64,000 bases of DNA from contig NZ_PZOX01000005.1 in NCBI RefSeq assembly GCF_003044305.1, positions 195,493-259,492 of the forward strand, written 5' to 3'. How positions within the stretch are numbered: the stretch's first letter is position 1; every line of letters starts with the position of its first letter. Below are positions 9,686-32,600 of the stretch, piece by piece. The stretch is from Vitiosangium sp. GDMCC 1.1324 (GTDB lineage Bacteria; Myxococcota; Myxococcia; Myxococcales; Myxococcaceae). The position numbers and the translations under genes were made by a program. The notes beneath the pieces are model-generated. The model had not been told where the DNA came from and ran no database searches. It saw only the letters and a program-made list of their open reading frames with translations.

Positions 9686-9694
9686 CGGACCTGC

Positions 9695-12586: not shown

Positions 12587-12598
12587 ACCCGACTGCCC

Positions 12599-15339: not shown

Positions 15340-15345
15340 ACTCCC

Positions 15346-17694
15346 TTGCGCTCCAGACCAGGAAGAACGATGGCCCCAGCAACGAATTCGCGAGTCCAAC
15401 ACCCTCGGGGACATCGCCTGCTCTTCCCGTCGCTCCTGGCATTCGTGCTCACGGGGGTTGCCGCGGCCAGCGCGTACACCACCCTGGGCAAGCATTTCCC
15501 CTCGCTCCTGGTGGATGCCTACCACTTCTATTCGATCGTCGAGTTGCCCTCGTGGGAGCGCACCGAGCCCCGCCCGCACGTGAGCCACCGCCTGGTGGCC
15601 GTGAATGGAGTGACTCTGCCGGAGAAGGCCCCTCTTCCATCACCCCTGGAGCTCTACGAGCTCATGGCGGGCACCTCCAGAGACTCGATGGCCCACCTCG
15701 AGTTCGAGGATCCGCGGGGTCGATCTTTCCCTCCCATCCACTCCCGCGTCAGCTGCTTCGGTGCCGAAGAGCTCCTGTTCTTCTTCGTCGCGTATGCGCT
15801 GGCGGCTTGGCTGGTGCTCTGGTCCGGAGGCCTGGTCTTCACCGTGTGCGGCCGTCCCGCCGCGCGGCGTGCCTACACGTTCTGGTCGGTCGTGACCTTT
15901 CTTCTCCTGCTCTCCTTCTACGACTACCACACGAATGCATGGCTCGCGCCGTTCTTCTCGGTTTCGGCGGTAGGCATTCCGCTCGGGGCGCTCTGGCTGG
16001 CCTATGCCTTCCCAAGGCCACCCCGGTGGAGGGCGACTATCATTCGCCGCGGGCTCATCGTCCTGACGGTGCTGGGAGCCGGAACGGCCACCGGTCTCGT
16101 GGTGGCGCGCTTCACCGGATGGAATGTCTACCCCATCCGCAATGCCATCGATCATCTGATGGCCCCCAGCTTCGTAACCCTCGCGGGGATCGTCCTCCTC
16201 CGGATGCGGCGTAGCACGGGACTGGAACGCACCGAGTTGGTCACCGCGTCCTGGGGCCTCATCACCACGCCCTTGCTGCTGGCACTCGTGCACGTGCTCT
16301 CCCTCATCACCGGCAGGGACGTGCGACACCTGGTGCTGCCCTTCGCGGTCCTCCTCTTTCCGCTCTCCATCGGATACGCCTTGATTCGCAACAACATCCT
16401 GGAAGCCCGGACGGTGCTGACCTCGAGGATGTTGAGGGTTCCATTCGCCCTGGGGGCCATCCTCCTGTCGGTCCTGGGCACATACCTGGCCTATCTGGCC
16501 ACCCGGAACGGACAGGTCGTGCTTGATCTGCTCTTCCTGCTGGGCTTCGCACTCTTCCTCCTCTTGATGGTGCTCGCCCGGCACATTCAGACGCGGCTGT
16601 TCTTCCCCTCCACCCTTGCATTCCGAGGCACCGTCCAGGGCCTCAGTGACAGGCTGGCCGCACTGCGTGACATTCCCGCCATCCGGCGAGCCGTGGAGGA
16701 GGCGGTGGTGAAGACCCTTCCCACCCTCTCGGCCCAGGTTGTCGAGCCCGGAGCGCTTGTCGAGCTCTCCTATCTTCCTGGTGACTCCCAGGAGCGGCTC
16801 GCACGGGGGGAAAACCTCTGGACGGCGCAAAGCCCCCGCGATCAGCACCTCCTGCTCCCCATGCGCTCGCTGGGAGAGCTTCGAGCCGTGCTGCTCGTCG
16901 CTCCCAAGCGTGGGGCGGCCCTCTACACCCAGGAAGACATCCACCTGCTGGAGACGCTCGCCAGCCTGGGTGCCCTGGCCCTTCACAACGCCGAGGTCGT
17001 TCAGGAGCTCGAGTCCATCAGGCGCCTTGAGGTGGGCGCGGCCCAGAAAGAAAAACAGCTGACGCTCAGTGCGTTGAGTGAGGAGCTGTGCCACGAGATG
17101 GTCTATCCCCTGAACTTCCTCCAGGATCTCCTCCGGCGAGGTGCCAGCGGTCAGCCGCTCGACGAGGAGGACCTCTCCTTCGCACGCGATGAGGTCGACC
17201 GCATGAAGCGGATGCTCGACTCCCTGCGCCGACTCCAGCTCCCCACCCCCCGGCTCGCTCCACTCCAGCTCCTCGGACACATCCAGCGAGCGCTCCTGCT
17301 CGTCCGCGAGCCGATCCACGAAAAGAAGCTGTCCGTCACGATCGATGTCCCCCCCGAGCTGACCGTGAACGCCGAGGGGGGCGCCCTCGTGCAGCTCCTC
17401 AGCAACCTCCTGCGCAACGCAGCCCAGGCGACCCCCGAGGCGGGAGCTATTGGCATCCGTCTCCACCAGGGTCCCGGGGGTCAGCTCCTCGACGTCTGGG
17501 ACACAGGCCCTGGCATCCCAGAGCATGTGGCGCCCGCCCTCTTCACCAGCCGCCGCATCAGCACGAAGCAGGGAGGGTATGGCATTGGACTGACCGTGGT
17601 CCAGCGCATCGCCTACACCTTCCAATGGGACATCTCCTTCCGGCGTGAATCGGAGCGCACGTTGTTCCGACTCACCCTTCCCCACCCGCCATGA
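15346..17694 (+). CDS. Membrane sensor histidine kinase with a multi-TM (7TM-type) N-terminal sensor, HisKA and HATPase_c domains.
   Basis: There are 7-8 hydrophobic segments in residues ~30-400. The H-box reads LSEELCHEMVYPLNFL. The N, G1 and G2 boxes read LLSNLLRNAAQAT, VWDTGPGIP and GGYGIGLTVV. The start may be the Met at 15370 (MAPATNS). Confidence 0.7.
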   Translation: MRSRPGRTMAPATNSRVQHPRGHRLLFPSLLAFVLTGVAAASAYTTLGKHFPSLLVDAYHFYSIVELPSWERTEPRPHVSHRLVAVNGVTLPEKAPLPSPLELYELMAGTSRDSMAHLEFEDPRGRSFPPIHSRVSCFGAEELLFFFVAYALAAWLVLWSGGLVFTVCGRPAARRAYTFWSVVTFLLLLSFYDYHTNAWLAPFFSVSAVGIPLGALWLAYAFPRPPRWRATIIRRGLIVLTVLGAGTATGLVVARFTGWNVYPIRNAIDHLMAPSFVTLAGIVLLRMRRSTGLERTELVTASWGLITTPLLLALVHVLSLITGRDVRHLVLPFAVLLFPLSIGYALIRNNILEARTVLTSRMLRVPFALGAILLSVLGTYLAYLATRNGQVVLDLLFLLGFALFLLLMVLARHIQTRLFFPSTLAFRGTVQGLSDRLAALRDIPAIRRAVEEAVVKTLPTLSAQVVEPGALVELSYLPGDSQERLARGENLWTAQSPRDQHLLLPMRSLGELRAVLLVAPKRGAALYTQEDIHLLETLASLGALALHNAEVVQELESIRRLEVGAAQKEKQLTLSALSEELCHEMVYPLNFLQDLLRRGASGQPLDEEDLSFARDEVDRMKRMLDSLRRLQLPTPRLAPLQLLGHIQRALLLVREPIHEKKLSVTIDVPPELTVNAEGGALVQLLSNLLRNAAQATPEAGAIGIRLHQGPGGQLLDVWDTGPGIPEHVAPALFTSRRISTKQGGYGIGLTVVQRIAYTFQWDISFRRESERTLFRLTLPHPP

Positions 17695-19163
17695 ACTTCG
17701 ACGATACGAATGAACAGCGGCTTCTCAGGGTCCTCATCGTCGATGACGAGAGAATGGCGCTGAGGAGTCTGTCCGGCATCCTGCAATCCCTCGGAAACAT
17801 CGAGCTCCATCGCGCCAGCAACCTGGCCGAGGCCCGGCAGATCCTCGAGGAGGCCGTGCTCGACATCGCCTTCATCGATCTACAGCTCTCTCAAGACATC
17901 CGGAACCGGGATGGCTTCACACTCGTCCAGGAGATCCGCGGCCGTTACCAGACGGTGCCCGTCGTGGTGAGCAGCCACAGCCAGCCCAACGAGATCCGCG
18001 AGGCCATGAAGCTGGGCGCCGAAGACTACGTGCTCAAGACGGAAATCGATCAGCGGGTCCCCATCATCATCAAGGAGCTGCGCCACAAGCTCGAGCTGAA
18101 TCAGGAGTTGCTGGACCTCCGGGCCCGAGGAGCCCCCGACTCGAACCTTGGACTCATTGGCACCTCGGTGGCCATGCAGAACCTGCGAGCCCTGCTCCAG
18201 CGAGTGGCCACGGCCGACCTCCAGGAACCGGTGCCCGTCCTCATCCTGGGGCCGACGGGCTCCGGAAAGGAGCTGGTGGCCCAGGGCATCCACAAGCTCG
18301 GTCCCCATCCCTCCGAGCCCTTCTTCGACATCAACTGCGGTGCACTCGCCGAGACCCTGGTCGAGGATCAGCTCTTCGGACACGTCCGGGGCGCCTTCAC
18401 CGACGCCACCCGGGACCAGGACGGGTACTTCACGCTCGTGCGGCGAGGCACCCTCTTCCTGGACGAGGTGGCCGAGCTGACCCCGGCCCTCCAGGCCAGG
18501 CTGCTGCGCGTCCTGGAGACGCGACGTTTCAGGCCCGTCGGTCCCACCGCCCGCGAACAGTTCTTCCAGGGCCGCATCGTCGCCGCCACCCACGTCGACC
18601 TCCAGGAGCGCGTCCGAAAAGGGCAGTTCCGCGAGGACCTCTTCCACCGGCTCAACGTGCTGTTGATCCGCGTCCCCCCGCTCTCGGGGCACCGGGAGGA
18701 CATCCCGGCGCTCGTCCAGCACTTCGTCGCCGGGCACCGCAAGCCATTGCATTTCACGCAGGAGGCCATCGAGCAGCTCTGCCGACGACCCTGGCCGGGT
18801 AACATCCGCGAGCTGCGCAACGCCATCTACCGGCTGGCCATCCTCGCCGACTCCGAGCGCATCGACGCGGAGATGCTCGAGCGCTATCTCCCCCTGGAGT
18901 CCAATGGAGCCCCGGGTGACGTGCTGGAGGAGCTGTTGAGCCATATGGCTCGGCAGCTCCTCTCCCTTCCCCTCCCCGGCCAGGACAGAAGCCACGTCAT
19001 CACCAAGGCCCTTGTGCTGGAGGCAATGGAACAGGCGCGTGACAACAAGACGGAGGCCGGCAAGAAGCTGGGGTGGAACCGCAAGGCCGTCGAGCGCTTC
19101 CTCAAGAACCTCGACGACTCCGAATCTGGCGAGGACGAAGACAAGGGCGAGCCGGTGGTGTGA
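17691..19163 (+). CDS. Sigma-54-dependent response regulator (NtrC-family enhancer-binding protein).
   Basis: The REC domain reads RVLIVDDERMALRSL...DIAFIDLQL. The AAA+ sigma-54 activator domain has Walker A GPTGSGKELVA, GAFTDA, GTLFLDEV and the FGH loop. There is a C-terminal HTH. An ATGA overlap with the kinase indicates an operon. Confidence 0.8.
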   Translation: MNFDDTNEQRLLRVLIVDDERMALRSLSGILQSLGNIELHRASNLAEARQILEEAVLDIAFIDLQLSQDIRNRDGFTLVQEIRGRYQTVPVVVSSHSQPNEIREAMKLGAEDYVLKTEIDQRVPIIIKELRHKLELNQELLDLRARGAPDSNLGLIGTSVAMQNLRALLQRVATADLQEPVPVLILGPTGSGKELVAQGIHKLGPHPSEPFFDINCGALAETLVEDQLFGHVRGAFTDATRDQDGYFTLVRRGTLFLDEVAELTPALQARLLRVLETRRFRPVGPTAREQFFQGRIVAATHVDLQERVRKGQFREDLFHRLNVLLIRVPPLSGHREDIPALVQHFVAGHRKPLHFTQEAIEQLCRRPWPGNIRELRNAIYRLAILADSERIDAEMLERYLPLESNGAPGDVLEELLSHMARQLLSLPLPGQDRSHVITKALVLEAMEQARDNKTEAGKKLGWNRKAVERFLKNLDDSESGEDEDKGEPVV

Positions 19164-19279
19164 ACCGACGCACGTGGACGGTTCTGTCCAACCTCCACGT
19201 CCCGGTGGTCGACTCCGTCCAGGCTCGGAAGGGGCTCCAGGACGTTCTTCCCTCTGAAGAAACCTCCGCGGCCATGCAC

Positions 19280-19295
19280 TGGCTCACTGCTTGCT
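19280..19295 (+). promoter_or_regulatory. Candidate sigma-54 (-24/-12) promoter for the downstream repeat lipoprotein gene.
   Basis: TGGCTCACTGCTTGCT matches TGGCAC-N5-TTGC with exact GG-N10-GC spacing. It lies ~110 nt upstream of the ATG at 19407. It is directly downstream of the sigma-54 activator gene. An identical element occurs at 24499. Confidence 0.5.
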
Positions 19296-19406
19296 AGTCA
19301 TCACCTCGGCTGAAGTCACCCAGCCCCCCAGGGCAGGAGGGGAGTGTCGGGGGGCGCCCCCTCCTGTCGTGGTGGACGGATAGCCCCAGGTACGGAGGTT
19401 TCAACA

Positions 19407-22400
19407 ATGAGTCTCACTTCGAACAGCCGCTGGGCTGCGGGATTTCTCGCGGCCTGGTTGTTCTCTGGATGCGCCCAGGAAGAACGTACACTGCCCTCGT
19501 CCAACGAAGCCCCCGCGGGCTCCGGGCAGGTGAGCCCCCCATTCGACGTGCAGAAGATCATGGACCAGGTGCACTTCGCCTTCCGGCCCCAGGGCTCTAC
19601 CTGGGAGGGAGGGCACAGCACCTACGCTGTGCGGGTGGAGACCGACAGTTTTAGCGTCACGCCCTACCACTACCCACGGAGTCAGCCCGAGGGAACCGAG
19701 ATCTCACGGCTCTCTCAGGAGCACGGGGCGCAACGACTGGCGTCCCCCACGCAAGAGCATGTGGAAGGAGCCCCCGTGAGCTTCGGCGCCGCCCACGTGA
19801 CCCGTGGAGGCATGCTGCTGTCGAGCCACGAAGCGAAGGGCCAAGCGCAGGACTCCGATGGCCTTACCATAGTTCGTGGTTGGGTGGCCGAACACTTCCA
19901 CAACAACAAGGACGGAGTGGAACAGAGCTGGAGTTTCGAGCAGAAGCCCGGTGGAACGGGGGACATCGAGGTGCGGCTGCCGGTGAAGAGCGGACGCTTC
20001 CTCGGAGAGACGGCCAATGGGTTGCACTTCGCCACGGGGAGCGCCGGTCTGGGCGTGCGCTACGGCCATGGCACCTGGGTGGATGCGGAGGGCCAACGCA
20101 CCCCCGTGCCCTCCCGTTTCGAAGCGGACAGCATCGTATTGCGCGTACCGGCGCAGGTGGTGGATGCGTCAGCCTACCCGGCCGTGCTCGACCCCATCGT
20201 TTCGCCAGAGATTGGCATGGACGATCCAGTGAATGGTCCTGCAGACAACAGCCAATGGGACCCTGCGATAGCCCACAACGGAACGAACTTCCTGGTCGTT
20301 TGGGGTGACTACCGCAGCAACAACAGCTATGACATCTACGGTGCTCGGGTGAGCAATGCCGGCACCGTGCTCGACACCACTGGCATTCGCATCTCAAATG
20401 CAATCAATAGCCAGTACGCGCCCGCCGTGGCCCAGGACGGAACGAACTTCCTGGTCGTCTGGCAGGACAACCGCGGCAGCAGCACTGACATCTACGGTGC
20501 TCGGGTGAGCGGCACCGGCACCGTGCTCGACACCAGCGGCATCCCCATCTCCACGGCCAACAACGAACAGTACAACCCCATGGCGACCTACGACGGAACG
20601 AACTTCCTGGTCGTCTGGCAGGACTACCGCAGCGGCACGAACTATGACATCTACGGTGCTCGGGTGAGCGGCACCGGCACCGTGCTCGACGCCAGCGGCA
20701 TCCCCATCTCCACCGCCGCCAACAACCAGGTCACCCCCGCCGTGGCCAGCAACGGAACGAACTCCCTGGTCGTGTGGCAGGACACCCGCAGCGGCAGCAG
20801 CGCTGACATCTATGGCGCTCGAGTGAGCAACACTGGCACGGTACTCAACGCCAGCGGCATTCTCATTTCCAATGCTGTCAATGCGCAGGAATCCCCCGCA
20901 GTGGCCTACAATGGGGTGGACTTCATGGTCGCGTGGCAGGACTACCGCAGCGGCACGAACTATGACATCTACGGTGCTCGGGTGAGCGGTACGGGTGTGG
21001 TGCGCAACCCCAGCGGCATCCCCATCTCCACTGCCACCAACGACCAAAAATCCCCTGCACTGGCGCGAGAGGGGACGAACTGCCTGGTCGTGTGGCGGGA
21101 CTACGCCAGCTACGACATCTATGCTGCGCGGGTGAACAGCACCGGCACGGTCCTCGATACCAGTGGCATCCTCCTCTCCACCTCCGCCAGCAACACGGAT
21201 ACTCCTGCGGTAGCCCACGACGGGACGAACTTCCTGGTCGTTTGGACGGACTATAGCCGCCCCAACAGTTCAAACATCTATGGTGCGCGGGTGAGCAGCA
21301 CCGGCATGGTGCTCGATGCGAGCGACATCGCCGTCTCTAGATCCGCGAACGGCCAGTACAATCCTGCAGTGGCTCACGATGGGACGAACTTCCTGGTCGT
21401 CTGGCGGGATACCCGCAGCGGCATCTCCACGATCTATGGTGCACGGGTAGACGAAACAGGTACGGAAGTGCTCGACACCAGCGGTATCCCTATTGCTATC
21501 GGCAATAATAAGTACTCCCCCAAAGTAGTCTATGGCGGGACAGATTTCCTGGTTGTGTGGAGTGAATACCGCGGCAGCACGAGCTCTGACATCTACGGTG
21601 CGCGGGTGAGCATCGACGGCACGGTACTCGACACCAGCGGCATTCCCATCTCTACCACCACCAACGACCAGTATAACCCCGTCGCGGCCTACGACGGGAC
21701 GAACTTCCTGGTCGTTTGGACGGACTATCGCAGTGGCACGTCCACATCCTATGACATCTACGGTGCGCGGGTGAGCAGCGCTGGCACAGTACTCGACACC
21801 AGCGGCATTCCCATCTCTGCCGCCACCAACGACCAGTATTACCCCGTCGTGACCTTCAACGGGAGCTTCTTGGTTGCATGGCAAGACTACCGCAGTGGCA
21901 GCAACCCTGATATCTACGGTGCACGGGTGAGCAGCGACGGTACGGTGCTCGACACCAGTGGCATCCTCATTTCCAGCACCACCAATTACAAACAACATCC
22001 CTCGGTGACCCACAACGGGATCAACTTCCTGGTCGTGTGGAATGAATACCGCAGCAGCACGGGCTCTGACATCTACGGGGCGCGGGTGAGCGGTGACGGC
22101 ACGGTGCTCGACACCAGCGGTATTTCCATCTCTGCCGCCACCAACGACCAGTATTACCCCGTCGTGGCCTACGACGGGGCGAACTTCCTGGTCGTCTGGC
22201 AGGATACCCGCAGCGGCTCTAGTTTCTCTGACATCTACGGGGCGCGGGTCAACGAACTGGGCAAGGTGCTCGACACCAGCGGCATTTCCATCTCCACCGA
22301 GCCGGAGGCTGAAGTCGAGCCCACGGTTGTCTCTATGGGAGGAGAAAGTTCGCTCGTCGTCTATCGCCGTTCCAATCCCTCGCCGAGCACCAACAGCGAG

Positions 22401-22433
22401 CGTGTGATGGCACGACTGGTCCAGTCTCCCTAA
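19407..22433 (+). CDS. Giant secreted lipoprotein with about 20 tandem ~40-aa repeats (consensus ...TNFLVVWQDYRSG...DIYGARVS..GTVLD.SGI.IS...).
   Basis: GGAGG precedes the ATG. The signal/lipobox is MSLTSNSRWAAGFLAAWLFSGCAQEE. Highly regular repeats run from ~20270 to 22250. Opposite-strand ORFs here are shadow ORFs of the repeats. Confidence 0.65.
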   Translation: MSLTSNSRWAAGFLAAWLFSGCAQEERTLPSSNEAPAGSGQVSPPFDVQKIMDQVHFAFRPQGSTWEGGHSTYAVRVETDSFSVTPYHYPRSQPEGTEISRLSQEHGAQRLASPTQEHVEGAPVSFGAAHVTRGGMLLSSHEAKGQAQDSDGLTIVRGWVAEHFHNNKDGVEQSWSFEQKPGGTGDIEVRLPVKSGRFLGETANGLHFATGSAGLGVRYGHGTWVDAEGQRTPVPSRFEADSIVLRVPAQVVDASAYPAVLDPIVSPEIGMDDPVNGPADNSQWDPAIAHNGTNFLVVWGDYRSNNSYDIYGARVSNAGTVLDTTGIRISNAINSQYAPAVAQDGTNFLVVWQDNRGSSTDIYGARVSGTGTVLDTSGIPISTANNEQYNPMATYDGTNFLVVWQDYRSGTNYDIYGARVSGTGTVLDASGIPISTAANNQVTPAVASNGTNSLVVWQDTRSGSSADIYGARVSNTGTVLNASGILISNAVNAQESPAVAYNGVDFMVAWQDYRSGTNYDIYGARVSGTGVVRNPSGIPISTATNDQKSPALAREGTNCLVVWRDYASYDIYAARVNSTGTVLDTSGILLSTSASNTDTPAVAHDGTNFLVVWTDYSRPNSSNIYGARVSSTGMVLDASDIAVSRSANGQYNPAVAHDGTNFLVVWRDTRSGISTIYGARVDETGTEVLDTSGIPIAIGNNKYSPKVVYGGTDFLVVWSEYRGSTSSDIYGARVSIDGTVLDTSGIPISTTTNDQYNPVAAYDGTNFLVVWTDYRSGTSTSYDIYGARVSSAGTVLDTSGIPISAATNDQYYPVVTFNGSFLVAWQDYRSGSNPDIYGARVSSDGTVLDTSGILISSTTNYKQHPSVTHNGINFLVVWNEYRSSTGSDIYGARVSGDGTVLDTSGISISAATNDQYYPVVAYDGANFLVVWQDTRSGSSFSDIYGARVNELGKVLDTSGISISTEPEAEVEPTVVSMGGESSLVVYRRSNPSPSTNSERVMARLVQSP

Positions 22434-22440
22434 GAGCATG

Positions 22441-22512
22441 TTCCGGTAGAGCTGAACCCTAGCAGGCTGCTCCTCGGGCGAGGGTGCAGAGCAGCCTCCT
22501 ACCGGAACAGGT
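22441..22512 (+). terminator. Long nested inverted-repeat hairpin immediately after the lipoprotein gene stop; a putative intrinsic terminator/structured element.
   Basis: The outer stem is TGTTCCGGTAG...CTACCGGAACA. The inner stem is CAGGCTGCTC...GAGCAGCCTC. A degenerate copy lies at ~24017-24075. Confidence 0.35.
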
Positions 22513-22514
22513 TC

Positions 22515-23996
22515 TAATACTACAGCTGTAGTTCGGAAGACCTGAGCGGTGGCCTCTGTTGAACCAACAGCAGAGGTAACCGGAGGTTTCCCATGAAGGC
22601 GCAGGTCGCGACCGAGCCTGCCGAGATGGTCCTTGCACAGAGGCTGGTCGAAGAGTTCGAGCGAGTCACTGCACGGCTGGGATCGCACTTCCGCCGACGA
22701 GAGGCGCACGAGGCAGCCAGCAGCTACGTGAAGGCACTGCTATCGCGAGCAGAGAGGAAGAATGCGTGGGGCCTGGCCGAGGAGGCTGGCAAGGCCGCGC
22801 CGTATTGCTTCCAACACCTGCTGCTGCGGGCGAAGTGGGACGAGGCGGCCGTGCGAGATGGCGTGCTGGCGTACATGCGCGAGCGGCTCGGCGAGGGCGG
22901 CGTGCTCGTGGTGGACGAGACGGGATTCTTGAAGAAGGGCGACAAGTCGGCCGGCGTGGCACGCCAATACACGGGCACTGCCGGGCGGATTGAGAACTGC
23001 CAAGTGGGTGTCTTCCTCGCGTACGAAACGCCTCGAGGCCATTCGCTGGTAGACAGGGAACTGTACCTGCCGGAGGAGTGGACGCGGAACAAACCCCGGT
23101 GTCAGCAGGCCGGTGTTCCGGACGAGGCGGCATTCCGCACCAAGACCCAACTGGCTCACGCCATGTTGCTGCGAGCCTTCGAGGCGGGTTTGCGCCCCTC
23201 GTGGGTGACGGGTGACGAGGTGTATGGCCGCGACGGCGAGTTGCGCCGCTTCCTGGAGCAACGCCACCAACGGTACGTGCTCGCGGTGGCCTCCAATACC
23301 TACGTATGGCGAGGCTTCGTGCAGGTGCCGGCTGGCCGTGTGTTGTCCGAGCTGGAGCCAGAGGACTGGACGCGCCTGTCCGCGGGAGCAGGCAGCAAGG
23401 GCCCGCGCCTGTACGACTGGGCGCTCGTCCGGGTCAACTCGCATACCGGCACGCTGGCCCGGTGGCTGCTGTTCCGCAGAAGCCTCGCGGACCCTAGCAA
23501 CGTGGCGCACTACTTGGTGCACGCGCCCGCCAATACCTCGCTGGATGCCATGGTGAAGGCCGCTGGCAGTCGCTGGCCGGTAGAGGAGTGCTTCGAGTCG
23601 GGAAAGGGCGAGGTCGGGCTGGGCGACTATGAAGTGCGCAGCTACACCGGCTGGTACCGCCACATGACGTTGTGCCTGGTGGCCCATGCGTACTTGGCCG
23701 CAGCGCGCTCGCTGGCCAATACCGAGGAGCAGCTGCCTCCCCCAAAAGCTCTGGGCCTGCCGCACCGCAGAAGCCGGATGACCGCGTTTCGTCGGCGCCA
23801 GGGCCTGCTCTCCGCGTCCGCCTCTCCGTCCAGGAGATAAGACGTCTGCTGCTGGCACTCGTCTGGGCGATTCGCCCGACGGTGGACTTCGTGCTGCGGT
23901 GGAGCCGCTGAAGGCGACGACACCAAGCCATCGCCAAGCTGTGCCACTACCGCCGCAGTAATCCTCGGCTCAAAGTACAACCGTAGTACTAAGAGC
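22515..23996 (+). mobile_element. IS701-family insertion sequence (transposase CDS 22593..23840) with imperfect ~30-bp terminal inverted repeats.
   Basis: The transposase motifs VLVVDETGFLKKGDKSAGVARQYTGTAGRIENCQVGVFLAY and SWVTGDEVYG give an IS701-type DDE. The left end is GGTTCTAATACTACAGCTGTAGTTCGGAAG. The right end, as reverse complement, is GGCTCTTAGTACTACGGTTGTACTTTGAG. Confidence 0.65.
22593..23840 (+). CDS. IS701-family DDE transposase.
   Basis: See the mobile-element entry. The 415-aa ORF begins after GGAGGTTTCCC ATG. Confidence 0.7.
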   Translation: MKAQVATEPAEMVLAQRLVEEFERVTARLGSHFRRREAHEAASSYVKALLSRAERKNAWGLAEEAGKAAPYCFQHLLLRAKWDEAAVRDGVLAYMRERLGEGGVLVVDETGFLKKGDKSAGVARQYTGTAGRIENCQVGVFLAYETPRGHSLVDRELYLPEEWTRNKPRCQQAGVPDEAAFRTKTQLAHAMLLRAFEAGLRPSWVTGDEVYGRDGELRRFLEQRHQRYVLAVASNTYVWRGFVQVPAGRVLSELEPEDWTRLSAGAGSKGPRLYDWALVRVNSHTGTLARWLLFRRSLADPSNVAHYLVHAPANTSLDAMVKAAGSRWPVEECFESGKGEVGLGDYEVRSYTGWYRHMTLCLVAHAYLAAARSLANTEEQLPPPKALGLPHRRSRMTAFRRRQGLLSASASPSRR

Positions 23997-24498
23997 CAAT
24001 TTCAGCAAGCCTCACCCCTGGCCGGTTGCTCCTCGGGCAGGGAAAAGAAGAAGGAGCCTACCGAAACAGGCCTTGAGAGCACATCTCAGCAGGCTCCATT
24101 CCTGACTATTGCTCCTCAAACTTCCGGGCACCCTCATGAGCCATGCGCTGGCACATGAAGGCGCCCGGCTTCTCGTACTGCCATTTGATGCAGAGGGACT
24201 GGCGCTCTGCTGGGTTACACACCTTGCACTTGAAACAGCAGGCGCAGCCCTCGTCTCAGTACACCATACATCCGTCACCACCTCAGCCTCCTCCCCGACC
24301 AGCACAGAAGCCACGTCATCAAGGATCTCGATGACTCCCAATCTGGGGGAGAGCAGCAGGAAGAGGGTGAGCCGGAGACGTGAGCTGACGGGCGTGGATG
24401 GTTCTGTCCAATCTCCACGTCCCAGTGGCCGGTTCCGTCCAGACTCGGAAGAGGAGCCAAGGCGTTCTTCCCTCTGACGAAGCCCCGCTGCCATGCAC

Positions 24499-24514
24499 TG
24501 GCTCACTGCTTGCT
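24499..24514 (+). promoter_or_regulatory. Second copy of the candidate sigma-54 promoter.
   Basis: An identical TGGCTCACTGCTTGCT lies inside a ~190-bp block (24395-24580) that is about 85% identical to 19180-19370. It is ~350 nt upstream of the 24866 gene. Confidence 0.45.
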
Positions 24515-24865
24515 AAGCAACACCTCGACTGGAGTCACAGCCCCAGGGCAGGAGGGGAGCGTCAGGGGTATCCCCTCTTGCATTGGAGACTGCCGGAGCG
24601 TCCTCCAGGAAAGACAAGAGATGACCTTGAGGTTCAGCGCATTGTGCCGCGTCATATTGCTTGGCTTCGGCATCTCCGGGGGATTTCAGCAGAAATCCTG
24701 ACAAACTTTAGGACTCATTGGCGTTGCAAACAAAACCCTAGGACTCATTGGCGTTGCAAACAACAAATACCCTTCGCGCTCTCCCGCCCGGCATCTCCTC
24801 ACTCAAACAGCACAGAAGTATGACCACCAATCAAGTATCCTGCCCTTAAGCTAGAATCCGATAAC

Positions 24866-27800
24866 TTGTATCCTTTGGAGATATTACCTTTGCGCCACAA
24901 ACAGTTTCGGCTCGCAATCGGTGGTGTTCTCGGTTTTCTCCTGGTAGCCATCTGGGCTGGCTATTCATGGAAGACCGAGCAAGGTGTAGGTCAGAGAACG
25001 CCCACCGAGAACATGCCGGAGCCGGTGCGGGCAACTCAGCACGAGGCCCATGGCGCCACGCCCTCAGGAGAGTTGTCATCTCTGGTGGGACAGCATGAGA
25101 CATACCAGGTGCACGCAACGGGAGCCACTTTCACTGTGACCCCCATCCGTCCACGTCAGCAGTCGCTAACCACGCCAGAACTGGTAATCGAAAGAGAGGA
25201 GGGAGCGCCCGCCACTTTCGAGACGATCGCGATGGAAAGAGGGGGGAATCCACTGGCCTTGACCGCTGGGCGTGGACGCGCCACGACTGACGGGGACTGG
25301 GTCATCGAGCGGGGGAGTGTCGTCGAGCAGGTGCGCCAGATGGAGAGGGGCGTTGAGCAAAGCTGGAATTTTGATCGCAAGCCCGCTGGGCGCGGTGGGC
25401 TCGTGGTTCACATCCGAGTCACGGGGCAGAAATACACGGAGTCTTCCCGGTATGGCTTGCATTTCGCGAGCGAGGGCAAGAAGACGGGTCTGCTCTATAG
25501 CCGGGCCACATGGGTGGATGCACGGGGCCGACGAACCCCCATCATGCCACGTTATGAGGGCGGGGAGATTCGCCTCGCTATCTCGAACGAGGTGCTCGAG
25601 TCTTCAGAGTACCCCGCCGTGCTGGATCCGATCATCTCGTCCGATTTCAAGATGGAGAACTCAGTATACCCGGCCATTTCCGGCGCCCAGACCAATCCGG
25701 CCGTGGCATTTGATCATGTGAACAAACATTACCTGGTCGTTTGGACCAACCAGCGCCCCACCACCGGGGCAGACATCTACGGCGCGTTGCTCAATACCGA
25801 CGGCACCCTCTTCAAGGGCGGCGTCGTCATCTCCAGTGCGAGTGGCGATCAGAGGAACCCCTCCGTCGCGTTTGACGGCAGCAACTTTCTCGTCGTCTGG
25901 GAGGACGAACGCAACCCCGCTTCCACGGACATCTATGGCGCACGGGTGGATGGAAACGGGGCTGTTCTAGATACTTCGGGCATTGTGCTGACCAGCGCCA
26001 CCAACAACCAGACCCTACCGAAAGTTGTCTTCAGGGGCTCCGATTCCGACTATCTTGTTGTCTGGCAAGATACACGCAACGTAAATCGGGATATCTATGG
26101 CACCCGGGTGAACGTGGCGGGCAATGTGTTGGACGGGAGCGGCGTTGCGCTTATCATGCGGCCTGGAGAACAAGGCCAACCAGCAATCGCCGTAGGGGCG
26201 ACCAACTCGTTCTTGGTGTGGGAGGACGGGAGCGGTTCTGCGACTTCGCATATCTATGGCGCCCTGCTGCCCGCGGGTAGCTTGACCTCCCTCTCCGCCT
26301 TCAATATTTGCCCAGGCCCTACAGCCAGCCAGATTACTCCCAGCGTTACATTCCACGTCGCCTCTGGGAACTATTTCGTGGTCTGGAGCGATACACGCAA
26401 CACGACGACCTCCAACGACATCTACGGAACCCGAGTAAACAGTGCCGGCACGGTATTGGATGCCTCCGGCTTCGCTATCTCCAACGCGCCGCTCGAACAG
26501 TTCGCGCCATCCATTGCCACTGCTGGGGACAGCCTTGTGGCAGTGTGGCAAGACGCACGTAACTCCATCGATAACGATATCTTCGGAAACCGGTTGCTCG
26601 GATCTGGCGGCGTACTGGATGGTTCGGGTTTTTCCATCTCCAGCAGCACGGATGAGCAAACCCCCGTAGTGAGCCCTGCCGTCACGGGCCAACAACTGGT
26701 GCTCTACAGCGCGCCGGACCCAAGCCTATCGATTCCACGCATCCGCGGTAGGCTCATTAGCAGGCAACCGCTGGGGAACACATGCAGCCTGAATCAGGAT
26801 TGTGCCTCTGGCTTCTGCGTGGACGGAGTGTGTTGCAACAGCGCCTGTGGAGGGAACTCTTCCGACGACTGCTTGGCCTGCAGCACTGTTACCGGGGCAA
26901 CGGCGAATGGAACGTGCACTGCCCGCCCGAACGGCGCTGCCTGTAGCGATGGCAATGCGTGCACAACCCCGGATACCTGCCAGGCAGGTGTCTGCACCGC
27001 AGGCACTCCTGCCACCTGTCCGGCCTCCGACCAGTGCCACGATGTGGGCACCTGCAACCCTGCCACGGGCACCTGCTCCAACCCCACCAAGCCCAATGGC
27101 TCTTCCTGCAGCGACGGCAATGCCTGTACTCGCACCGACACCTGCCAGGGCGGCACCTGTACCGGAGCTGCCCCTGTCACCTGTGCGGCCTCCGACCAGT
27201 GCCACGATGTGGGCACCTGCAACCCTGCCACGGGCACCTGCTCCAACCCCGCCAAGCCCAATGGCTCTTCCTGCAGCGACGGCAATGCCTGTACTCGCAC
27301 CGACACCTGCCAGGCAGGTACCTGCACCGCAAGCAGTCCTGTCACATGTACGGCCTCCGACCAGTGCCACGATGTGGGTACCTGCAACCCTGCCACGGGC
27401 ATCTGCTCCAACCCCGCCAAGCCCAATGGCTCTTCCTGCAGCGACGGCAATGCTTGTACTCGCACCGATACCTGCCAGGCAGGTACCTGCACCGCAGGCA
27501 CTCCTGCCACCTGTACGGCCTCCGACCAGTGCCACGATGTGGGTACCTGCAACCCTGCCACGGGCACCTGCTCCAACCCCGCCAAGCCCAATGGCTCTTC
27601 CTGCAGCGACGGCAATGCCTGTACTCGCACCGATACCTGCCAGGGCGGCACCTGTACCGGAGCTGCCCCTGTCACCTGTGCGGCCTCCGACCAGTGCCAC
27701 GATGTGGGCACCTGCAACCCTGCCACGGGCACCTGCTCCAACCCCGCCAAGCCCAATGGCTCTTCCTGCGACGATGGCAATACCTGCGCTCTCGCAGACA

Positions 27801-28204
27801 GCTGCCAAGCTGGAGTCTGCGTTGCCGGTACGGTGCGCCCCCCCGAGATATGTAACCTCGTGGACGACAACTGTGACGGCGCCGTCGACAACATCCCCGC
27901 TCTCACCTGCTCAACCAGAGAGTGTCGCGTTGGTACGAAATACTGCACGGCCCGTGGTGGCACCGCGTGCTCCTATACGGCCAACTCACGCAGCGGCACC
28001 CTGTGCAGCATCGGCTCGTGTAACGGCAAGGGCTCCTGCTGTGGCACGGTCCGCACTTATGTCGCTGCACGCTATGAGTACGAGATTCTCTTCTGGTACA
28101 GGCACTGTTCGGGTTGGCTGTGGTGGAGGAAGTGTACCTGGTACCCATTCTGGGGCTGGCGTTACTACCCGGCTCATTACGTCAATAAATACAAGTGCAT
28201 TTGA
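24866..28204 (+). CDS. Giant membrane-anchored/secreted protein. The N-terminal half has the same ~40-aa repeat family as the 19407 gene. The C-terminal half has 9 tandem Cys-rich modules (Myxococcus cysteine-rich repeat type) and a Trp-rich tail.
   Basis: The N-terminal TM helix is LAIGGVLGFLLVAIWAGYSW. Repeats such as NFLVVWEDERNPASTDIYGARVDGNGAVLDTSGIVLTS recur. The C-terminal modules read PNGSSCSDGNACTRTDTCQ(A/G)GTCT...TC.ASDQCHDVGTCNPATGTCSNPAK and occur 9 times. The tail reads WYRHCSGWLWWRKCTWYPFWGWRYY. Confidence 0.6.
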   Translation: MYPLEILPLRHKQFRLAIGGVLGFLLVAIWAGYSWKTEQGVGQRTPTENMPEPVRATQHEAHGATPSGELSSLVGQHETYQVHATGATFTVTPIRPRQQSLTTPELVIEREEGAPATFETIAMERGGNPLALTAGRGRATTDGDWVIERGSVVEQVRQMERGVEQSWNFDRKPAGRGGLVVHIRVTGQKYTESSRYGLHFASEGKKTGLLYSRATWVDARGRRTPIMPRYEGGEIRLAISNEVLESSEYPAVLDPIISSDFKMENSVYPAISGAQTNPAVAFDHVNKHYLVVWTNQRPTTGADIYGALLNTDGTLFKGGVVISSASGDQRNPSVAFDGSNFLVVWEDERNPASTDIYGARVDGNGAVLDTSGIVLTSATNNQTLPKVVFRGSDSDYLVVWQDTRNVNRDIYGTRVNVAGNVLDGSGVALIMRPGEQGQPAIAVGATNSFLVWEDGSGSATSHIYGALLPAGSLTSLSAFNICPGPTASQITPSVTFHVASGNYFVVWSDTRNTTTSNDIYGTRVNSAGTVLDASGFAISNAPLEQFAPSIATAGDSLVAVWQDARNSIDNDIFGNRLLGSGGVLDGSGFSISSSTDEQTPVVSPAVTGQQLVLYSAPDPSLSIPRIRGRLISRQPLGNTCSLNQDCASGFCVDGVCCNSACGGNSSDDCLACSTVTGATANGTCTARPNGAACSDGNACTTPDTCQAGVCTAGTPATCPASDQCHDVGTCNPATGTCSNPTKPNGSSCSDGNACTRTDTCQGGTCTGAAPVTCAASDQCHDVGTCNPATGTCSNPAKPNGSSCSDGNACTRTDTCQAGTCTASSPVTCTASDQCHDVGTCNPATGICSNPAKPNGSSCSDGNACTRTDTCQAGTCTAGTPATCTASDQCHDVGTCNPATGTCSNPAKPNGSSCSDGNACTRTDTCQGGTCTGAAPVTCAASDQCHDVGTCNPATGTCSNPAKPNGSSCDDGNTCALADSCQAGVCVAGTVRPPEICNLVDDNCDGAVDNIPALTCSTRECRVGTKYCTARGGTACSYTANSRSGTLCSIGSCNGKGSCCGTVRTYVAARYEYEILFWYRHCSGWLWWRKCTWYPFWGWRYYPAHYVNKYKCI
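26930..27800 (+). repeat. Near-identical tandem DNA repeats (~120-bp unit, alternating two variants, so ~240-bp periodicity) encoding the Cys-rich modules.
   Basis: Long stretches such as CTGCCACGGGCACCTGCTCCAACCCCGCCAAGCCCAATGGCTCTTCCTGCAGCGACGGCAATGCCTGTACTCGCACCGA recur almost perfectly. Confidence 0.7.
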
Positions 28205-28219
28205 TTCAGGTGATCCACC

Positions 28220-29368
28220 ATGGGTTTTGACCCGGAGAGCCGACACGTGAGGCCTCAGCAAATCAAATTCGTCAGTACACTGCTCCTGGCAGTAGCGGTC
28301 ATCGTCGTCGGGGCGCGGTGCCAGACTTCTTCTACCCCTCCCGAAAAGCCCGCGGAGCAGGAGGATGCGGGTGTTGTGCCAACAGACGGAGGAATCGCGG
28401 AACCGGATGGTGGCGAAGGGGACGCGGGAGAGGATCCGGACATGCCGCTGTCCTGCCCGGAGGAAACAACAGCATGCAAGACATCGTGTACCAACACCTC
28501 CTTGGACACCGAGAACTGCGGCACTTGTGGCACGCGTTGTAATGAGGACCAGGAGTGTATCCAAGGACAGTGCCTGGCTATGGGCTGCGCTCCCTTTCAG
28601 CAGGCATGCGCCACAGGGTGTACGGAGGTAGCGATCGATCCGGCCAACTGCGGCCAGTGCGGCAAAGCGTGCTCGGCGGAACAGGTGTGTGTGAATGGCC
28701 AGTGTGCTGAGCCCTCCGAGTGTCCTCCGCTGAGTGTGCTGTGTGGAGGCAAGTGCACACTGTTGAGTGAGGATCCAGCCAACTGCGGCCAGTGCGGCAA
28801 GGAATGCCCAGCGGGGCAGGGTTGCAGGGAGGGCGTGTGTGGGCCCATGACGGACTGCCCCGCCCCCGGAGTGTTCTGCAATGGGGTATGTACCGTGCTC
28901 GCCAAGGATCCGAACAACTGTGGCAAGTGCGGCAATACTTGCGAGCCTGGACGGACCTGCACCAACGGCAGTTGTGAGGCTCGCTGTCAGGCACCCGCAG
29001 TCGAATGCTCGGGGATATGCACCATTCTAGATGCCGACCCAAGCCACTGTGGTGCCTGCGGTAATGCATGTGGCAAGGGAATGTCCTGCAAGGGTGGCAA
29101 GTGCGAAGCGGGTTGCGAGCAAGGATGGGTCCTCTGCAATGGGGAGTGCACCGAGCTGGCCAATGACGCGCGGAACTGCGGCGCCTGTGGCAACTCGTGC
29201 GCTGCAAACGAGCATTGCGTGCAAGGGAGTTGCAGTGCCGGCTGTGGAGACGGGGGGACACTCTGTTCGAATGGATGTACCTCGGTGGAGTATGACCCGC
29301 AGAATTGCGGCACCTGCGGCAACGTGTGTCCGAGCGGCAAGAACTGTGTCCAAGGCAGTTGCCGTTGA
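28220..29368 (+). CDS. Secreted cysteine-rich repeat protein with about 9 tandem units of C.x.C....NCG.CG..C..G..C..G.C.
   Basis: There is an N-terminal hydrophobic signal. Units such as CKTSCTNTSLDTENCGTCGTRCNEDQECIQGQC and CTEVAIDPANCGQCGKACSAEQVCVNGQC recur. The protein ends in a Cys-rich module. Confidence 0.55.
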   Translation: MGFDPESRHVRPQQIKFVSTLLLAVAVIVVGARCQTSSTPPEKPAEQEDAGVVPTDGGIAEPDGGEGDAGEDPDMPLSCPEETTACKTSCTNTSLDTENCGTCGTRCNEDQECIQGQCLAMGCAPFQQACATGCTEVAIDPANCGQCGKACSAEQVCVNGQCAEPSECPPLSVLCGGKCTLLSEDPANCGQCGKECPAGQGCREGVCGPMTDCPAPGVFCNGVCTVLAKDPNNCGKCGNTCEPGRTCTNGSCEARCQAPAVECSGICTILDADPSHCGACGNACGKGMSCKGGKCEAGCEQGWVLCNGECTELANDARNCGACGNSCAANEHCVQGSCSAGCGDGGTLCSNGCTSVEYDPQNCGTCGNVCPSGKNCVQGSCR

Positions 29369-29657
29369 GCCTGCCCGCCGCACCTTGAATAATCGTGGGC
29401 TCGCCTCCTGACCTTGCGTGAGACTTCAGCCTCACCCAAGCGCCGGTGGCGAGCCCCGAGCCCACCTCCTCCTGGTGCAGTCGCCAGTGCTTGGCAGCGA
29501 GTTCCGGTGGTCACTTCCGTCCACCAGGTGGACACATGTGTCCACCTGGCCTCAAGAATGGACGTTTTCGTCCATCCCCCGCCAGCTTGCGACACAGGCT
29601 TGGTAGCCAACGGACGACCTCCAGGTTGCGTCGCTTGATTCCCAGATTCACATCGGT

Positions 29658-32600
29658 TTGTTCTTCCCGCCGATGCGAACCTCAGACTCCGACACGGCCC
29701 TGCCTGGCTTCGAGCGCAGTCTCGCCATCGTCATCGGTATCAACGCCTATTCCCACGGCATTCCCCCCCTCCACAACGCCGTGCGCGACGCCAACGCCGT
29801 CGCCGACTCCCTGGAGAGCCAGGGCTTCGAGGTGATCCGTCTCCTCGACTCCCAGGCAACCCTCTCATCCCTCTCCCTCCTGCTCTCCCATCACCTCCCC
29901 TCCCTTCCCTCGCCTGCCGATAGGATTCTCATCTACTTCGCCGGTCATGGCCTGGCCCATACCGACGAGCAGCACCAGTTCTCCGGGTTCCTGCTGCCCG
30001 CTGACGCTCGCCGCGACGACACCTCCTCCTACTGGCCCATGGCCGCCCTTCGCGACGCGCTGCGCCTGCTGCCCTGCCGCCACCTGCTGCTCATCCTCGA
30101 CTGCTGCTTCGCCGGGGCCTTCCCCCACTCCCCCTCGCGCGACATCCGCGCGCCCTCCCTCCCCGCGCCCCTCCACCTCGAGCGCTTCCGTCACTTCTCC
30201 TCCCGCCGCTCCTTCCAACTCCTTCTTTCCACCGCCCACGACGAGCTGGCCTCCGACAGGCTCCTGGCCAAATCCTCTCAGGAGTCCCTCGGCGACGGAC
30301 TCCACTCCCCCTTCGCCCTCGCGCTCCTCCAGGCCCTCCAACCCCATTCCCCCGCCGACTCCAATCAAGACGGCCTCCTCACCGCCGCCGAGCTCTACAC
30401 CTTCCTGCGCGACAGGCTCCTCTCCCTCGTCCCCTCCCACTGCCAGCAGACTCCCTCCCTCTGGCACCTGGACTGGCACGACGGAGGCGAGTTCCTCTTC
30501 CTCCTCTCCGACTCCCTCCCCTCCCTGCCTCCCGCCGCCCCGCTCTCCCAGCGCTCCAATCCCTACCTCGGCCTGCGCCCCTTCTCCTCCTCCCACCGCC
30601 ACCTCTTCTTCGGCCGAGAGCGCCTCGTCGACTCCCTCCTCGAGCGACTGAGGACCCAGCCCCTGCTGCTGCTGTGCGGCCCCTCCGGCGCGGGCAAGTC
30701 CAGCCTCGTCCATGCCGGCCTCCTTCCGAGCGTCTCCGAGGACCCCTCCTGGCGCGTCCCCCCATCCCTGCGCCCCTCGTCCCAGCCATTCCAGGCGCTG
30801 TCCTCCTGGCTCGCCTCGCTGGCTCCCAATACCGCGGCTCCCTCGGCCTCCGCCCTCGCCTCACGGCCCCGCGCCGCCGCCGACTTCCTCTCCTCCTTCC
30901 TCTCCCGCAACCCCGAGCGCGCTGTTCTCCTCGTCATCGACCCGCTCGAGGAGCTCGTCACCGCTTGCCTCGAGGACTCCGTGCGCCGCGCCTTCCTGCG
31001 CTCACTGTCCAGCCTCCTCCTGCTCTCGCACCCCCGGCTCCACCTGCTGCTGCTGCTGCGCTCGGACTTCGAGCCCCACTTCCTCTCCCTCCTCCAGGCC
31101 TCCGCCCTTCCCTCCGCACTCTGGCATGGCGCCCGTCTCAACCTCCCGCCCATGAACCGGGACGAGCTGCGCCGCTGCATCGAGAAGCCCGCGGAGTCCT
31201 GTGTCCTCTTCTTCTCCCCGGGCCTCGTCGAGCGCCTGTTGGATGACGTCGAGCAGATGCCCGGCGCCCTTCCCCTTCTCTCCGTAGCCCTCAGTGAGCT
31301 GTTCGGCGCCTACCTGGCCAGTGGCCGGGACGACCGCACCCTCTGCTTCGAGGACTACCACCACATTGGCGGTGGCATCGCGGGAGCGCTCCAGCGCCGG
31401 GCCGAGCTCGTCTTCTCCGGGCTGCCACCGCCCTCCACCGAAGGACAGCCCGCCCTGCCGCCTGTTCTCTCATCGGAGCTGCCCTCCTTCCAGCGCACCC
31501 TGCGCAACGTGCTGCTGCGCATGGTGTCTCCCGAAGGTGGCGAGCTGGCGCGCCGCAGGGTGCCGCGCGCCGAGCTGGAGTACCCCCACCACGAGGAGAA
31601 TTCCCGCGTCCTGCGTGTCCTGCGCACCCTGGAGGCCAGCCGTCTCGTGGTGGCCAGCGACGACGGAGGACCCTGTGTCGAGCCCGCTCACGATGCCTTG
31701 CTCTCCGCCTGGCCCAGGCTTCATGACTGGGCACGCCACGCTCAGCGCGAGCTACTCCTGCTGCGCCGTATCTCCCATGCCGCCTTCGAGTGGAACCGCC
31801 ACCATCGCGCAAGCGACTTCCTCTGGGCGGACGCGCGATTGGATCAGCTCGGTCTGGCGCTGACCTCCCCGCGCCGCACCGACGAGCCTCTCGCATTGCC
31901 CACCGTTTCACCTGGGGGCCAACCCACTGAGCCCTTGGCGCTCAACGCCGCGGAGAGTGGATTCCTCCGCGCCAGCGCGACACGCCGGCGCTTGCTGCGC
32001 ACCCGCCGCGGCGTGCTCGCTCTTACGTTGGCCATGATGCTCGTTGCGCTCACCGTGGCCGCCCTCTTCCAGGCCAACAAAGCTAACTTCAATGCCAGGG
32101 AAGCCCAGCGCCAGCAGCGCGCCGCCGAAGCCAGCGCGGAAGAGGCACGCAAGCAGAAGGAGGCCGCCGAGGCCAACGCCAGGGAGGCCCAGAAGCAGCA
32201 GCGCATCGCCGGCCTCAACGCCAAGGAAGCCCAGCGGCAGCAACAAGCAGCCGAGGCCAACCTCGAGGAGGCTCGAAAGCAACAAGAAGCCGCTGATGCC
32301 AACGCCCGAGAGGCGCTGCGACAGCAGAGGGTTGCCGAGGCCAATGCCACGGAGGCTCAGCGGCAAAAGCAGTTCGCCGACGCGAACGCCCAGGAAGCCC
32401 TGAAACAGAAGAATACCTCCGAGGCCAATGCCAGGGAGGCTCGCAAGCAACAGGAGGCCGCCGAAGCCAACTTCATGGAGGCTCAGCGGCAAAAGCAGTT
32501 TGCCGACGCGAACGCCCAGGAAGCCCTGAAACAGAAGAACACCTCCGAGACCAATGCCAGGGAGGCTCGCAAGCAACAGGAGGCCGCCGAAGCCAACTTC

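Follow-up and report, generated by a model that had tools for sequence, protein, structure and literature searches.

Organisation of the activator locus

The window, as we call the whole 64,000-nt stretch of contig NZ_PZOX01000005.1 analysed here, belongs to Vitiosangium sp. GDMCC 1.1324 of the Archangiaceae, a protein of which is 100% identical to the activator encoded here, and contains a sensor histidine kinase gene and the gene of an NtrC-type sigma-54 activator, followed by two genes for giant repeat proteins, here called gene A and gene B (Table 1). Each of the two is preceded by a copy of one regulatory block (copy 1 before A, copy 2 before B), an insertion sequence of the IS701 family lies between the copies, and a large caspase-nSTAND1-WD40 gene (the STAND gene) follows on the right. 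The kinase and activator genes close an operon that is led by the putative promoter P0 and runs, in order, through a 200-aa open reading frame (ORF), a 312-aa ORF, an S8 peptidase gene, the kinase gene and the activator gene. As argued below, the two copies of the block probably result from the stacking of two haplotypes of this locus by recombination.

Table 1 Features of the activator locus and its cargo slot in the window, with positions counted along the whole stretch
Feature	Position	Strand	Basis and remarks
Dyads of TGGAC-N6-GTCCA type	11696..11814	+	11696-11711 perfect, 11799-11814 with one mismatch; 5' of kinase/activator operon
P0, putative sigma-54-type promoter cGGCACGGCAGTTGCT	11897..11912	+	Read in the sequence; conserved 16-mer
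Sensor histidine kinase gene	15346..17694	+	HATPase_c 1.8e-18; 4-nt overlap with activator start
NtrC-type sigma-54 activator gene	17691..19163	+	Sigma54_activat 1.7e-55, Response_reg 1.7e-18
36-nt near-palindrome within activator gene	18927..18962		Lies 9 nt before the duplicated segment begins
Upstream activator sites 1 (UAS1), predicted	19175..19221	+	Dyad 1 TGGACGGTTCTGTCCA 19175-19190; dyad 2 TGGTCGACTCCGTCCA 19206-19221; centres 31 bp apart
P1, predicted sigma-54 -24/-12 element TGGCTCACTGCTTGCT	19280..19295	+	GG 19281-82, GC 19293-94
Leader inverted repeat/hairpin GGCAGGAGGGG...CCCCTCCTG	19326..19375	+	Folding, conservation
Gene A, 1008-aa lipoprotein	19407..22433	+	Lipobox LFSGC
Strong hairpin after gene A	22434..22514	+	Folding; A. 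gephyra homology ends within it, at 22449
IS701-family element	22511..23996	+	Transposase ORF 22593-23840; ends read in the sequence
Degenerate copy of the hairpin's right half	24016..24070	+	77% over 56 nt; terminator-like on the minus strand
18-nt exact match to A. gephyra sequence 3' of gene A	24090..24107	+	Score 36 against a null of 18.3 +/- 2.4
Stretch matching no comparison locus	24108..24289	-	3' end of a Cys-rich minus-strand ORF; putative haplotype junction in or beside this stretch
Activator 3'-end relic	24290..24383	+	24290-24321 = 18971-19002; 24322-24383 = 19099-19163
Upstream activator sites 2 (UAS2), predicted	24395..24441	+	Dyad 1 TGGATGGTTCTGTCCA 24395-24410; dyad 2 TGGCCGGTTCCGTCCA 24426-24441; 31-bp spacing
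P2, second TGGCTCACTGCTTGCT	24499..24514	+	Pattern search
Leader hairpin, second copy	24543..24586	+	Folding, conservation
Low-G+C insert in gene B leader	24598..24863	+	Without counterpart in L004
Gene B, 1104 aa, probable TTG start	24890..28204	+	Lies in ORF 24866-28204; start by homology to L004 position 11721
Gene of 382-aa MXAN_6577-like Cys-rich protein	28220..29368	+	NF041328, 251 bits; 15 nt 3' of B
Three-dyad cluster 5' of STAND gene	29508..29574	+	Dyads at 29508, 29529 and 29559
Caspase-nSTAND1-WD40 (STAND) gene	29673..34835	+	Right-hand conserved flank of the cargo slot; 5' half of B-haplotype type

A regulatory block in two copies

The segment at 18971-19366, which comprises the tail of the activator gene with its stop codon, two dyads, a -24/-12 element and a leader hairpin, is repeated at 24290-24582 with all of these parts. 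Such a duplication had been proposed in a sequence-only reading of the window, and alignment of the two regions bears it out: when 18700-19500 is searched against the window with blastn, 19099-19353 matches 24316-24568 (81% over 258 nt, E=2e-62) and 18971-19002 matches 24290-24321 (94% over 32 nt, E=5e-8). By alignment the copies are 82-85% identical (74% in the activator-tail part, 85% in the regulatory part), and their description as near-identical therefore overstates a resemblance of only 81-85%. The copied activator tail is likewise present, yet it is not the last ~110 nt of the gene but a relic of 94 nt drawn from its last 193 nt. Copy 2 lacks the 96 nt at 19003-19098, equivalent to 32 codons that include the predicted helix-turn-helix; the deletion is in frame, and reading continues to the same TGA (24381-24383).

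The longest perfect match between the copies is the 26-nt GCCATGCACTGGCTCACTGCTTGCTA, which contains TGGCTCACTGCTTGCT (at 19280 and 24499). At both P1 and P2 the GG and GC doublets are exactly 10 nt apart, as the sequence-only reading had it, and TGGCTC in place of TGGCAC is the sole departure from the consensus. A 122-nt composite pattern made up of dyad 1, dyad 2 and the -24/-12 element has two exact matches in the window and none in 100 shuffles.

Conservation of the block and predicted sigma-54 control

We compared the window with orthologous kinase/activator loci, which are given here with the identity of their activator to that of the window: A. gephyra (L001/L008, 88%), Archangium Cb G35 (L002, 84%), C. 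fuscus (L003, 75%), two metagenomic loci (L004/5, 88%, and L006/7, 86%), two loci from metagenome-assembled genomes (L017/18, 85%, and L019, 87%) and two from a genome scan (L010, 63%, and L011, 61%). The block lies directly 3' of the activator stop codon in every locus whose activator is at least 75% identical (nine loci; L001-L008 and L017-L019), with nhmmer E-values from 1e-59 to 4e-32, and a recognisable version occurs in L010 and L011. Two scans of metagenome contigs with patterns drawn from the block gave no hits; the first of the patterns does match L001-L008 and the window.

In the window the block begins 12 bp 3' of the activator stop codon. An alignment of 10 blocks from 8 lineages leaves TGG and TTGCT invariant and the spacer between them variable; the invariant columns are GTGGA..TT..GTCC in dyad 1 and TGG.C....C..CCAG in dyad 2, and they also include the stem of the leader inverted repeat. 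Dyad centres are 31 bp apart in 8 of the 10 blocks and 32 bp apart in the other 2. Relative to the predicted P1 transcription start near 19305, the dyads stand at approximately -124 and -93, positions that correspond to the classical geometry of an NtrC-type enhancer. With up to one mismatch allowed, the window contains 17 instances of TGGAC-N6-GTCCA where 2.4 would be expected, and the dyads cluster at four places, namely P0, P1, P2 and the region 5' of the STAND gene. Perfect dyads are found at the equivalent site 5' of the kinase/activator operon in L001, L004, L006, L017, L018 and L019, and the P0 16-mer is the same or near-identical at the orthologous position in 8 loci.

As far as sequence can show, identification of the block as a sigma-54 promoter with putative upstream activator sites is well supported, as is its predicted control by the adjacent activator, for which the dyads are the predicted binding sites. 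P0 and its dyads suggest, in addition, positive autoregulation of the kinase/activator operon. The proposal that A and B are both targets of the adjacent NtrC-type activator is consequently a credible prediction, given the footprint in 10 blocks, the dyads, and the presence of the same dyad at P0; sigma-54 dependence and co-regulation of A and B are both implied by it. Since the dyads are retained at P1 and P2 alike, and the -24/-12 elements of the two are identical, the remaining activator should switch on A and B together; this single protein would thereby drive A, B along with the 382-aa gene and, via P0, its own operon. The leader region 19305-19410 folds with z=-2.9, and its hairpin is kept in 6 blocks with almost no covariation (copy 2 has one G-U pair), so that any RNA role is tentative; an Rfam search over 18900-25000 gave nothing credible.

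The activator has receiver and AAA+ domains and a predicted C-terminal helix-turn-helix, with a Walker A motif GPTGSGKE and a Walker B motif LFLDEV; D63 is the probable phospho-acceptor of the receiver. Its sigma-54 contact loop, GAFTDA (residues 234-239), is a position-5 variant of GAFTGA; GAFTDA is common to nearly all close orthologs, and more distant relatives have GAFTGA or GAFTSA. The HTH_8 domain falls below the reporting threshold in the window protein, PF02954 is listed for some orthologs, and the segment TEAGKKLGWNRKAVERFLK is helix-turn-helix-like. Homologs outside the Archangiaceae cluster are at most ~53% identical. As the best NCBIfam scores are far under all equivalog cut-offs (290 bits against 559 for ntrC), the activator is not an ortholog of any named system.

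Variable cargo behind a conserved block

The genes that follow the block differ greatly among loci. The first gene 3' of the block is of A type in the window, in A. gephyra (L001) and in L017/18. B-type cargo is found in the window and in L004/5, whose order of activator, block, B, 382-aa gene and STAND gene is that of the window after copy 2; in L004, too, the gene after B encodes 382 aa. Elsewhere the cargo is a weakly Hint-like 624-aa protein (Cb G35 and L019), a Kelch/Big_9 protein (C. fuscus), an Ig-like surface protein (L006/7) or an RCC1 propeller (L010), which makes five unrelated kinds when A and B, as distant paralogs, are counted as one.

Several loci retain traces of change at this position. 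L019 carries, between the promoter block and the Cb G35-type cargo gene, what is left of a decayed gene A 5' end (~230 nt within 10450-10900, comprising the signal peptide and first ~70 codons, with frameshifts); this relic looks like a scar of cargo replacement. In Cb G35 itself the conserved block reaches as far as the ribosome-binding site of gene A, after which the sequence changes. L006 possesses a second complete block (16864-17059, with dyads, TGGTTCACTGCTTGCT and leader hairpin) 5' of an astacin/F5_F8-type gene; this second block has no activator tail, retains the leader hairpin that the first L006 block has lost, and is 54% identical to the first block as against 62-64% to the blocks of other lineages. 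The relic in L019, the switch in Cb G35 and the second block in L006 fit repeated cargo replacement.

Genes A and B had both been described as giant repeat lipoproteins, which holds for A alone. The N-terminus of A, MSLTSNSRWAAGFLAAWLFSGC, carries the lipobox LFSGC (LLSGC in the A. gephyra ortholog), whereas that of B, MRHKQFRLAIGGVLGFLLVAIWAGYSWK, is a membrane anchor with no cysteine and no lipobox. Gene A encodes an all-beta N-domain and ~13 repeats of ~53 aa that resemble propeller blades, and a model of residues 1-450 (mean confidence, pLDDT, 83) shows the N-domain followed by the blades; only generic beta-propellers in the PDB match this model (TM-scores <=0.28), so no function can be assigned. 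Gene B has an A-like N-domain, ~7 propeller repeats and Cys-rich C-terminal repeats. The ~53-aa repeat of both proteins falls within an unnamed secreted-protein family of very wide distribution; many of its members come from candidate division WOR-3 and carry type IX secretion system (T9SS) sorting domains.

The most likely start of B, judged from the sequence, is the TTG at 24890, which has a GGAG ribosome-binding site. It lies 375 nt past the -12 element because the leader holds an insert of ~265 nt (~50% G+C) that is lacking in L004. Within this insert are two perfect 24-nt direct repeats, AGGACTCATTGGCGTTGCAAACAA (24710-24733 and 24740-24763, a 30-nt period), and a 26-codon ORF (24622-24702) whose product, MTLRFSALCRVILLGFGISGGFQQKS, resembles an orphan signal peptide and has no Pfam family match. 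We also considered whether 24583-24870 might derive from the beginning of a decayed gene A, like the relic in L019, and rejected this, as local alignment scores were those of shuffled sequences.

Origin of the two copies

The divergence of the genes and that of the blocks tell different stories. A and B share 38-44% of their residues; for A and its A. gephyra ortholog, colinear over 1006 aa, the figure is 81%, and for B and the B of L004 it is 62%. Given the closeness of A to its A. gephyra ortholog, the split between A and B long predates the split between the blocks. Constraint on the block is too weak to account for the gap between blocks and genes, since the C. fuscus block is only 59% identical to that of the window although the activators are 75% identical.

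The window is colinear with A. gephyra at 89.6% from 9003 to 22449, and the alignment picks up again at 29659, so that 7.2 kb of the window have no counterpart in A. gephyra; in comparison with L004, it is 19378-24316 that is additional. Over the backbone at 12-17.6 kb, identity is 90-93% among the window, A. gephyra and L019, and L004 is 85-86% identical to them. The 5' half of the STAND gene is partitioned differently: identity is 89% between the window and L004, 84-88% between A. gephyra and L017, and 74-81% for pairs across these groups. As this grouping follows cargo type and runs against the backbone tree, it points to exchange between lineages. Moreover, copy 1 and copy 2 are as divergent (82-85% identity) as the backbones of the window and L004 (85-86%).

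The mosaic structure of the locus, the conservation of its parts and the relationships between their sequences are plain in these alignments, and from them we infer an order of events. Our preferred explanation, to which we give a probability of roughly 0.6, is that the window stacks two haplotypes through recombination, an A-type on the left and a B-type on the right. The A-type haplotype would consist of activator, P1 and gene A on an A. gephyra-like backbone, and the B-type haplotype would be L004-like, with activator, P2, gene B, the 382-aa gene and the STAND gene. Illegitimate or unequal recombination would have joined the two, cutting the B-type activator at approximately codon 427 and leaving its last ~190 nt, and this remnant would later have lost a further 96 nt to give the 94-nt relic. 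Under this hypothesis the block would be the native cis-regulatory module of the kinase/activator pair and, in the Archangiaceae, would head a cargo slot between the activator and the caspase-STAND-WD40 gene, which holds differing secreted or surface repeat proteins according to lineage.

Several observations weigh against haplotype stacking. Copy 2 is not clearly nearer to the L004 block (81%) than to copy 1 (82%); site patterns form an unresolved three-way split between copy 1, copy 2 and L004; and the branch of copy 2 is long, its unique changes numbering 20 where the other two have 6 and 9. L004-like sites are numerous in the activator 3' end and in copy 1, at ratios of approximately 1:1 and 29:18 in 18.8-19.2 kb, and they suggest that gene conversion, or a more complex history, was involved. 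No second genome with an A-B tandem and no donor were found among the comparison loci, and ~180 nt at the junction (24108-24289) match none of these loci. Finally, the ~265-nt insert in the leader could uncouple B from P2.

Part of this evidence would suit an ancestral tandem of the form activator-P-A-...-activator'-P-B, in which the blocks were kept alike by gene conversion and differential loss followed, with L004 losing A through P1 x P2 recombination and A. gephyra losing B. Such a history would account for the patchy L004-like signal in copy 1 and the activator tail of the window, two blocks are present in L006 as well, and the arrangement in L004 is exactly what a P1 x P2 crossover leaves. 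The L004 block contains no spatial switch marking a mosaic crossover point, as such a deletion would leave. We regard the ancestral tandem as unlikely, although as the most serious competitor, because none of the 9 other distinct comparison loci has an A-B tandem or an activator relic, the STAND 5' half goes with cargo type rather than with the backbone tree, and blocks that are 15-18% diverged imply that any conversion ended long ago.

The sequence-only reading had instead proposed that a single promoter-gene-hairpin unit, together with the activator 3' end, was tandemly duplicated within this genome, after which divergence turned the copies into A and B and IS701 landed between them. In the window both blocks and both of the paralogous genes do share order and orientation, and there is a weak copy of the hairpin. 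Duplication of such a unit nevertheless appears improbable, as genes that are 38-44% identical stand beside non-coding blocks that are 82-85% identical, a difference for which constraint on the block is insufficient; the split of A from B came long before that of the blocks; the second hairpin copy precedes copy 2 instead of following B; and outside this genome each of the genes stands alone behind an intact activator, B doing so in L004/5. Across all of their parts, the window copies do not combine the equal divergence and common order that distinguish a tandem unit.

That copy 2 is a dead relic, passively carried while B is driven by another promoter (for example one within the ~265-nt insert), would suit the 375-nt leader with its foreign low-G+C insert and two 24-nt direct repeats, and the approximately threefold excess of unique substitutions over copy 1, but is very doubtful given that the -24/-12 16-mer and 10 flanking nt are identical, both dyads keep their spacing, the leader hairpin is retained with one G-U pair, the regulatory part (85% identity) has changed less than the pseudogene tail (74%), and neither a sigma-70-like promoter nor a terminator was found in 24500-24900.

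The near-palindrome in the activator gene is self-complementary at 32 of its 36 positions, compared with 22-28 of 36 in orthologs, and is most perfect in the window and L004. It lies 9 nt from the left breakpoint of the duplicated segment and may be a fragile site.

The insertion between the copies

Homology to A. gephyra ends 16 nt past the stop codon of gene A (22449) and resumes as an 18-nt exact match at 24090-24107, so that 22450-24089 represents a 1.64-kb insertion absent from A. gephyra. This insertion contains the hairpin, the IS701 element and the degenerate hairpin copy. The hairpin (22434-22514) is strong (-44.8 kcal/mol, z=-5.1). A degenerate copy of it had been reported at ~24017-24075, and the similarity is real but marginal (22457-22511 against 24016-24070, 77% over 56 nt, E=5e-4), the partial copy folding no better than shuffled sequences (z=-0.7). 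Because both copies flank IS701, neither hairpin belongs to a duplicated gene unit.

The presence of an IS701 element between the copies is confirmed by its transposase (22593-23840; NF033540, 418 bits, 4e-125; DDE_5, 1e-50). The element is ~1.49 kb long, and imperfect terminal inverted repeats (~25 nt, ~20/25 matches) can be read at ~22511 and ~23996. No direct target repeat was found, no pair of plausible ends having a matching 4-5-nt direct repeat, and the element lies between direct repeats of ~55 nt (77%) within the 1.64-kb insertion. No second IS701 copy occurs in the window. In the region 24108-24289, the 49-aa Cys-rich fragment on the minus strand has no Pfam family match.

Flanking genes

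The STAND gene is itself a mosaic, with a 5' half (to ~31900) that is L004-like and a 3' repeat region that is equally near to L004 and A. gephyra or slightly nearer to A. gephyra. Before its 126-nt WD40 units it contains ~16 tandem units of 42 nt (32089-32928) with a strong skew of A over T. The dyads at 29508-29574 lie ~100-165 bp 5' of this gene; one of them is inside a perfect 20-bp palindrome, GGTGGACACATGTGTCCACC, and one of the three is conserved in L004, at 15387. No GG-N10-GC (-24/-12) element was recognised 3' of these dyads.

On the other side of the slot, gene order from 8741 to 15339 is conserved in L001-L019, and comprises Trypsin_2 and caspase-like C14 genes on the minus strand, the 200-aa and 312-aa ORFs, and the S8 peptidase gene. 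The two ORFs belong to no family. The possibility that either represents the published Vitiosangium gasdermin was rejected, as neither has a PDB match; the two proteins have no PADLOC match, and PADLOC returns generic protease hits only.

Relation to known systems and biological meaning

The locus is a variant of known mechanisms. The paradigm for its regulatory part is the NtrB/NtrC type of two-component sigma-54 system (glnAp2; ZraSR, AtoSC), with which it shares a kinase gene followed by a gene for a receiver/AAA+ activator with a predicted helix-turn-helix, two dyads approximately three helical turns apart and ~90-125 bp 5' of GG-N10-GC, and a regulator operon that probably has its own sigma-54 promoter with the same sites (autoregulation). 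It differs from that paradigm in the GAFTDA loop in place of GAFTGA, in a predicted enhancer 12 bp past the activator stop codon, and in targets that are changing secreted repeat proteins rather than metabolic genes. Among myxobacteria, many of the NtrC-like activators of Myxococcus xanthus (Nla proteins, MrpB, ActB, HsfA) use tandem or dyad sites 5' of -24/-12 elements, and the window activator, likewise a myxobacterial sigma-54 activator, may be compared with them by analogy.

A second parallel, by analogy only, is with the orphan modules of Rhs and contact-dependent inhibition (CDI) toxin loci, where a new module recombines via conserved upstream sequence and the old one is displaced downstream with a gene relic. 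The window likewise appears to carry a displaced module with a short relic of a conserved gene. Here, however, the relic derives from the regulator gene rather than from a cargo gene, the cargo is made up of entire genes whose products have unrelated folds, and the cargo slot showed no toxin/immunity pair. To judge from its sequence, the displaced module should stay expressed, because it keeps a complete enhancer and promoter.

More tentatively, the activator tail, enhancer, promoter and leader may together act as a portable cassette of homology and expression, which, with the STAND gene on the other side, would form a recombination landing pad at which Archangiaceae could swap, and now and then stack, unrelated cargo genes for secreted propeller or Ig-like proteins. 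The logic would resemble that of orphan modules in polymorphic toxin loci, albeit with whole genes and their own enhancer. If this is correct, the slot would be a regulated, horizontally exchangeable surface-protein locus under one signal-responsive activator, and the same process would also have produced the second block of L006 and the gene A relic of L019.

For the activator itself, an uncharacterised myxobacterial sigma-54 regulator, the analysis offers a concrete predicted regulon, with a motif, three promoters and predicted autoregulation. Such a regulon could gain a member in one step, when recombination delivers a target gene complete with enhancer and promoter. Comparison across lineages suggests that secreted repeat proteins occupy a hypervariable slot, controlled by the activator and situated beside caspase-like and STAND genes, which might matter for surface variation in myxobacteria or for the way their cells interact with one another and with prey.

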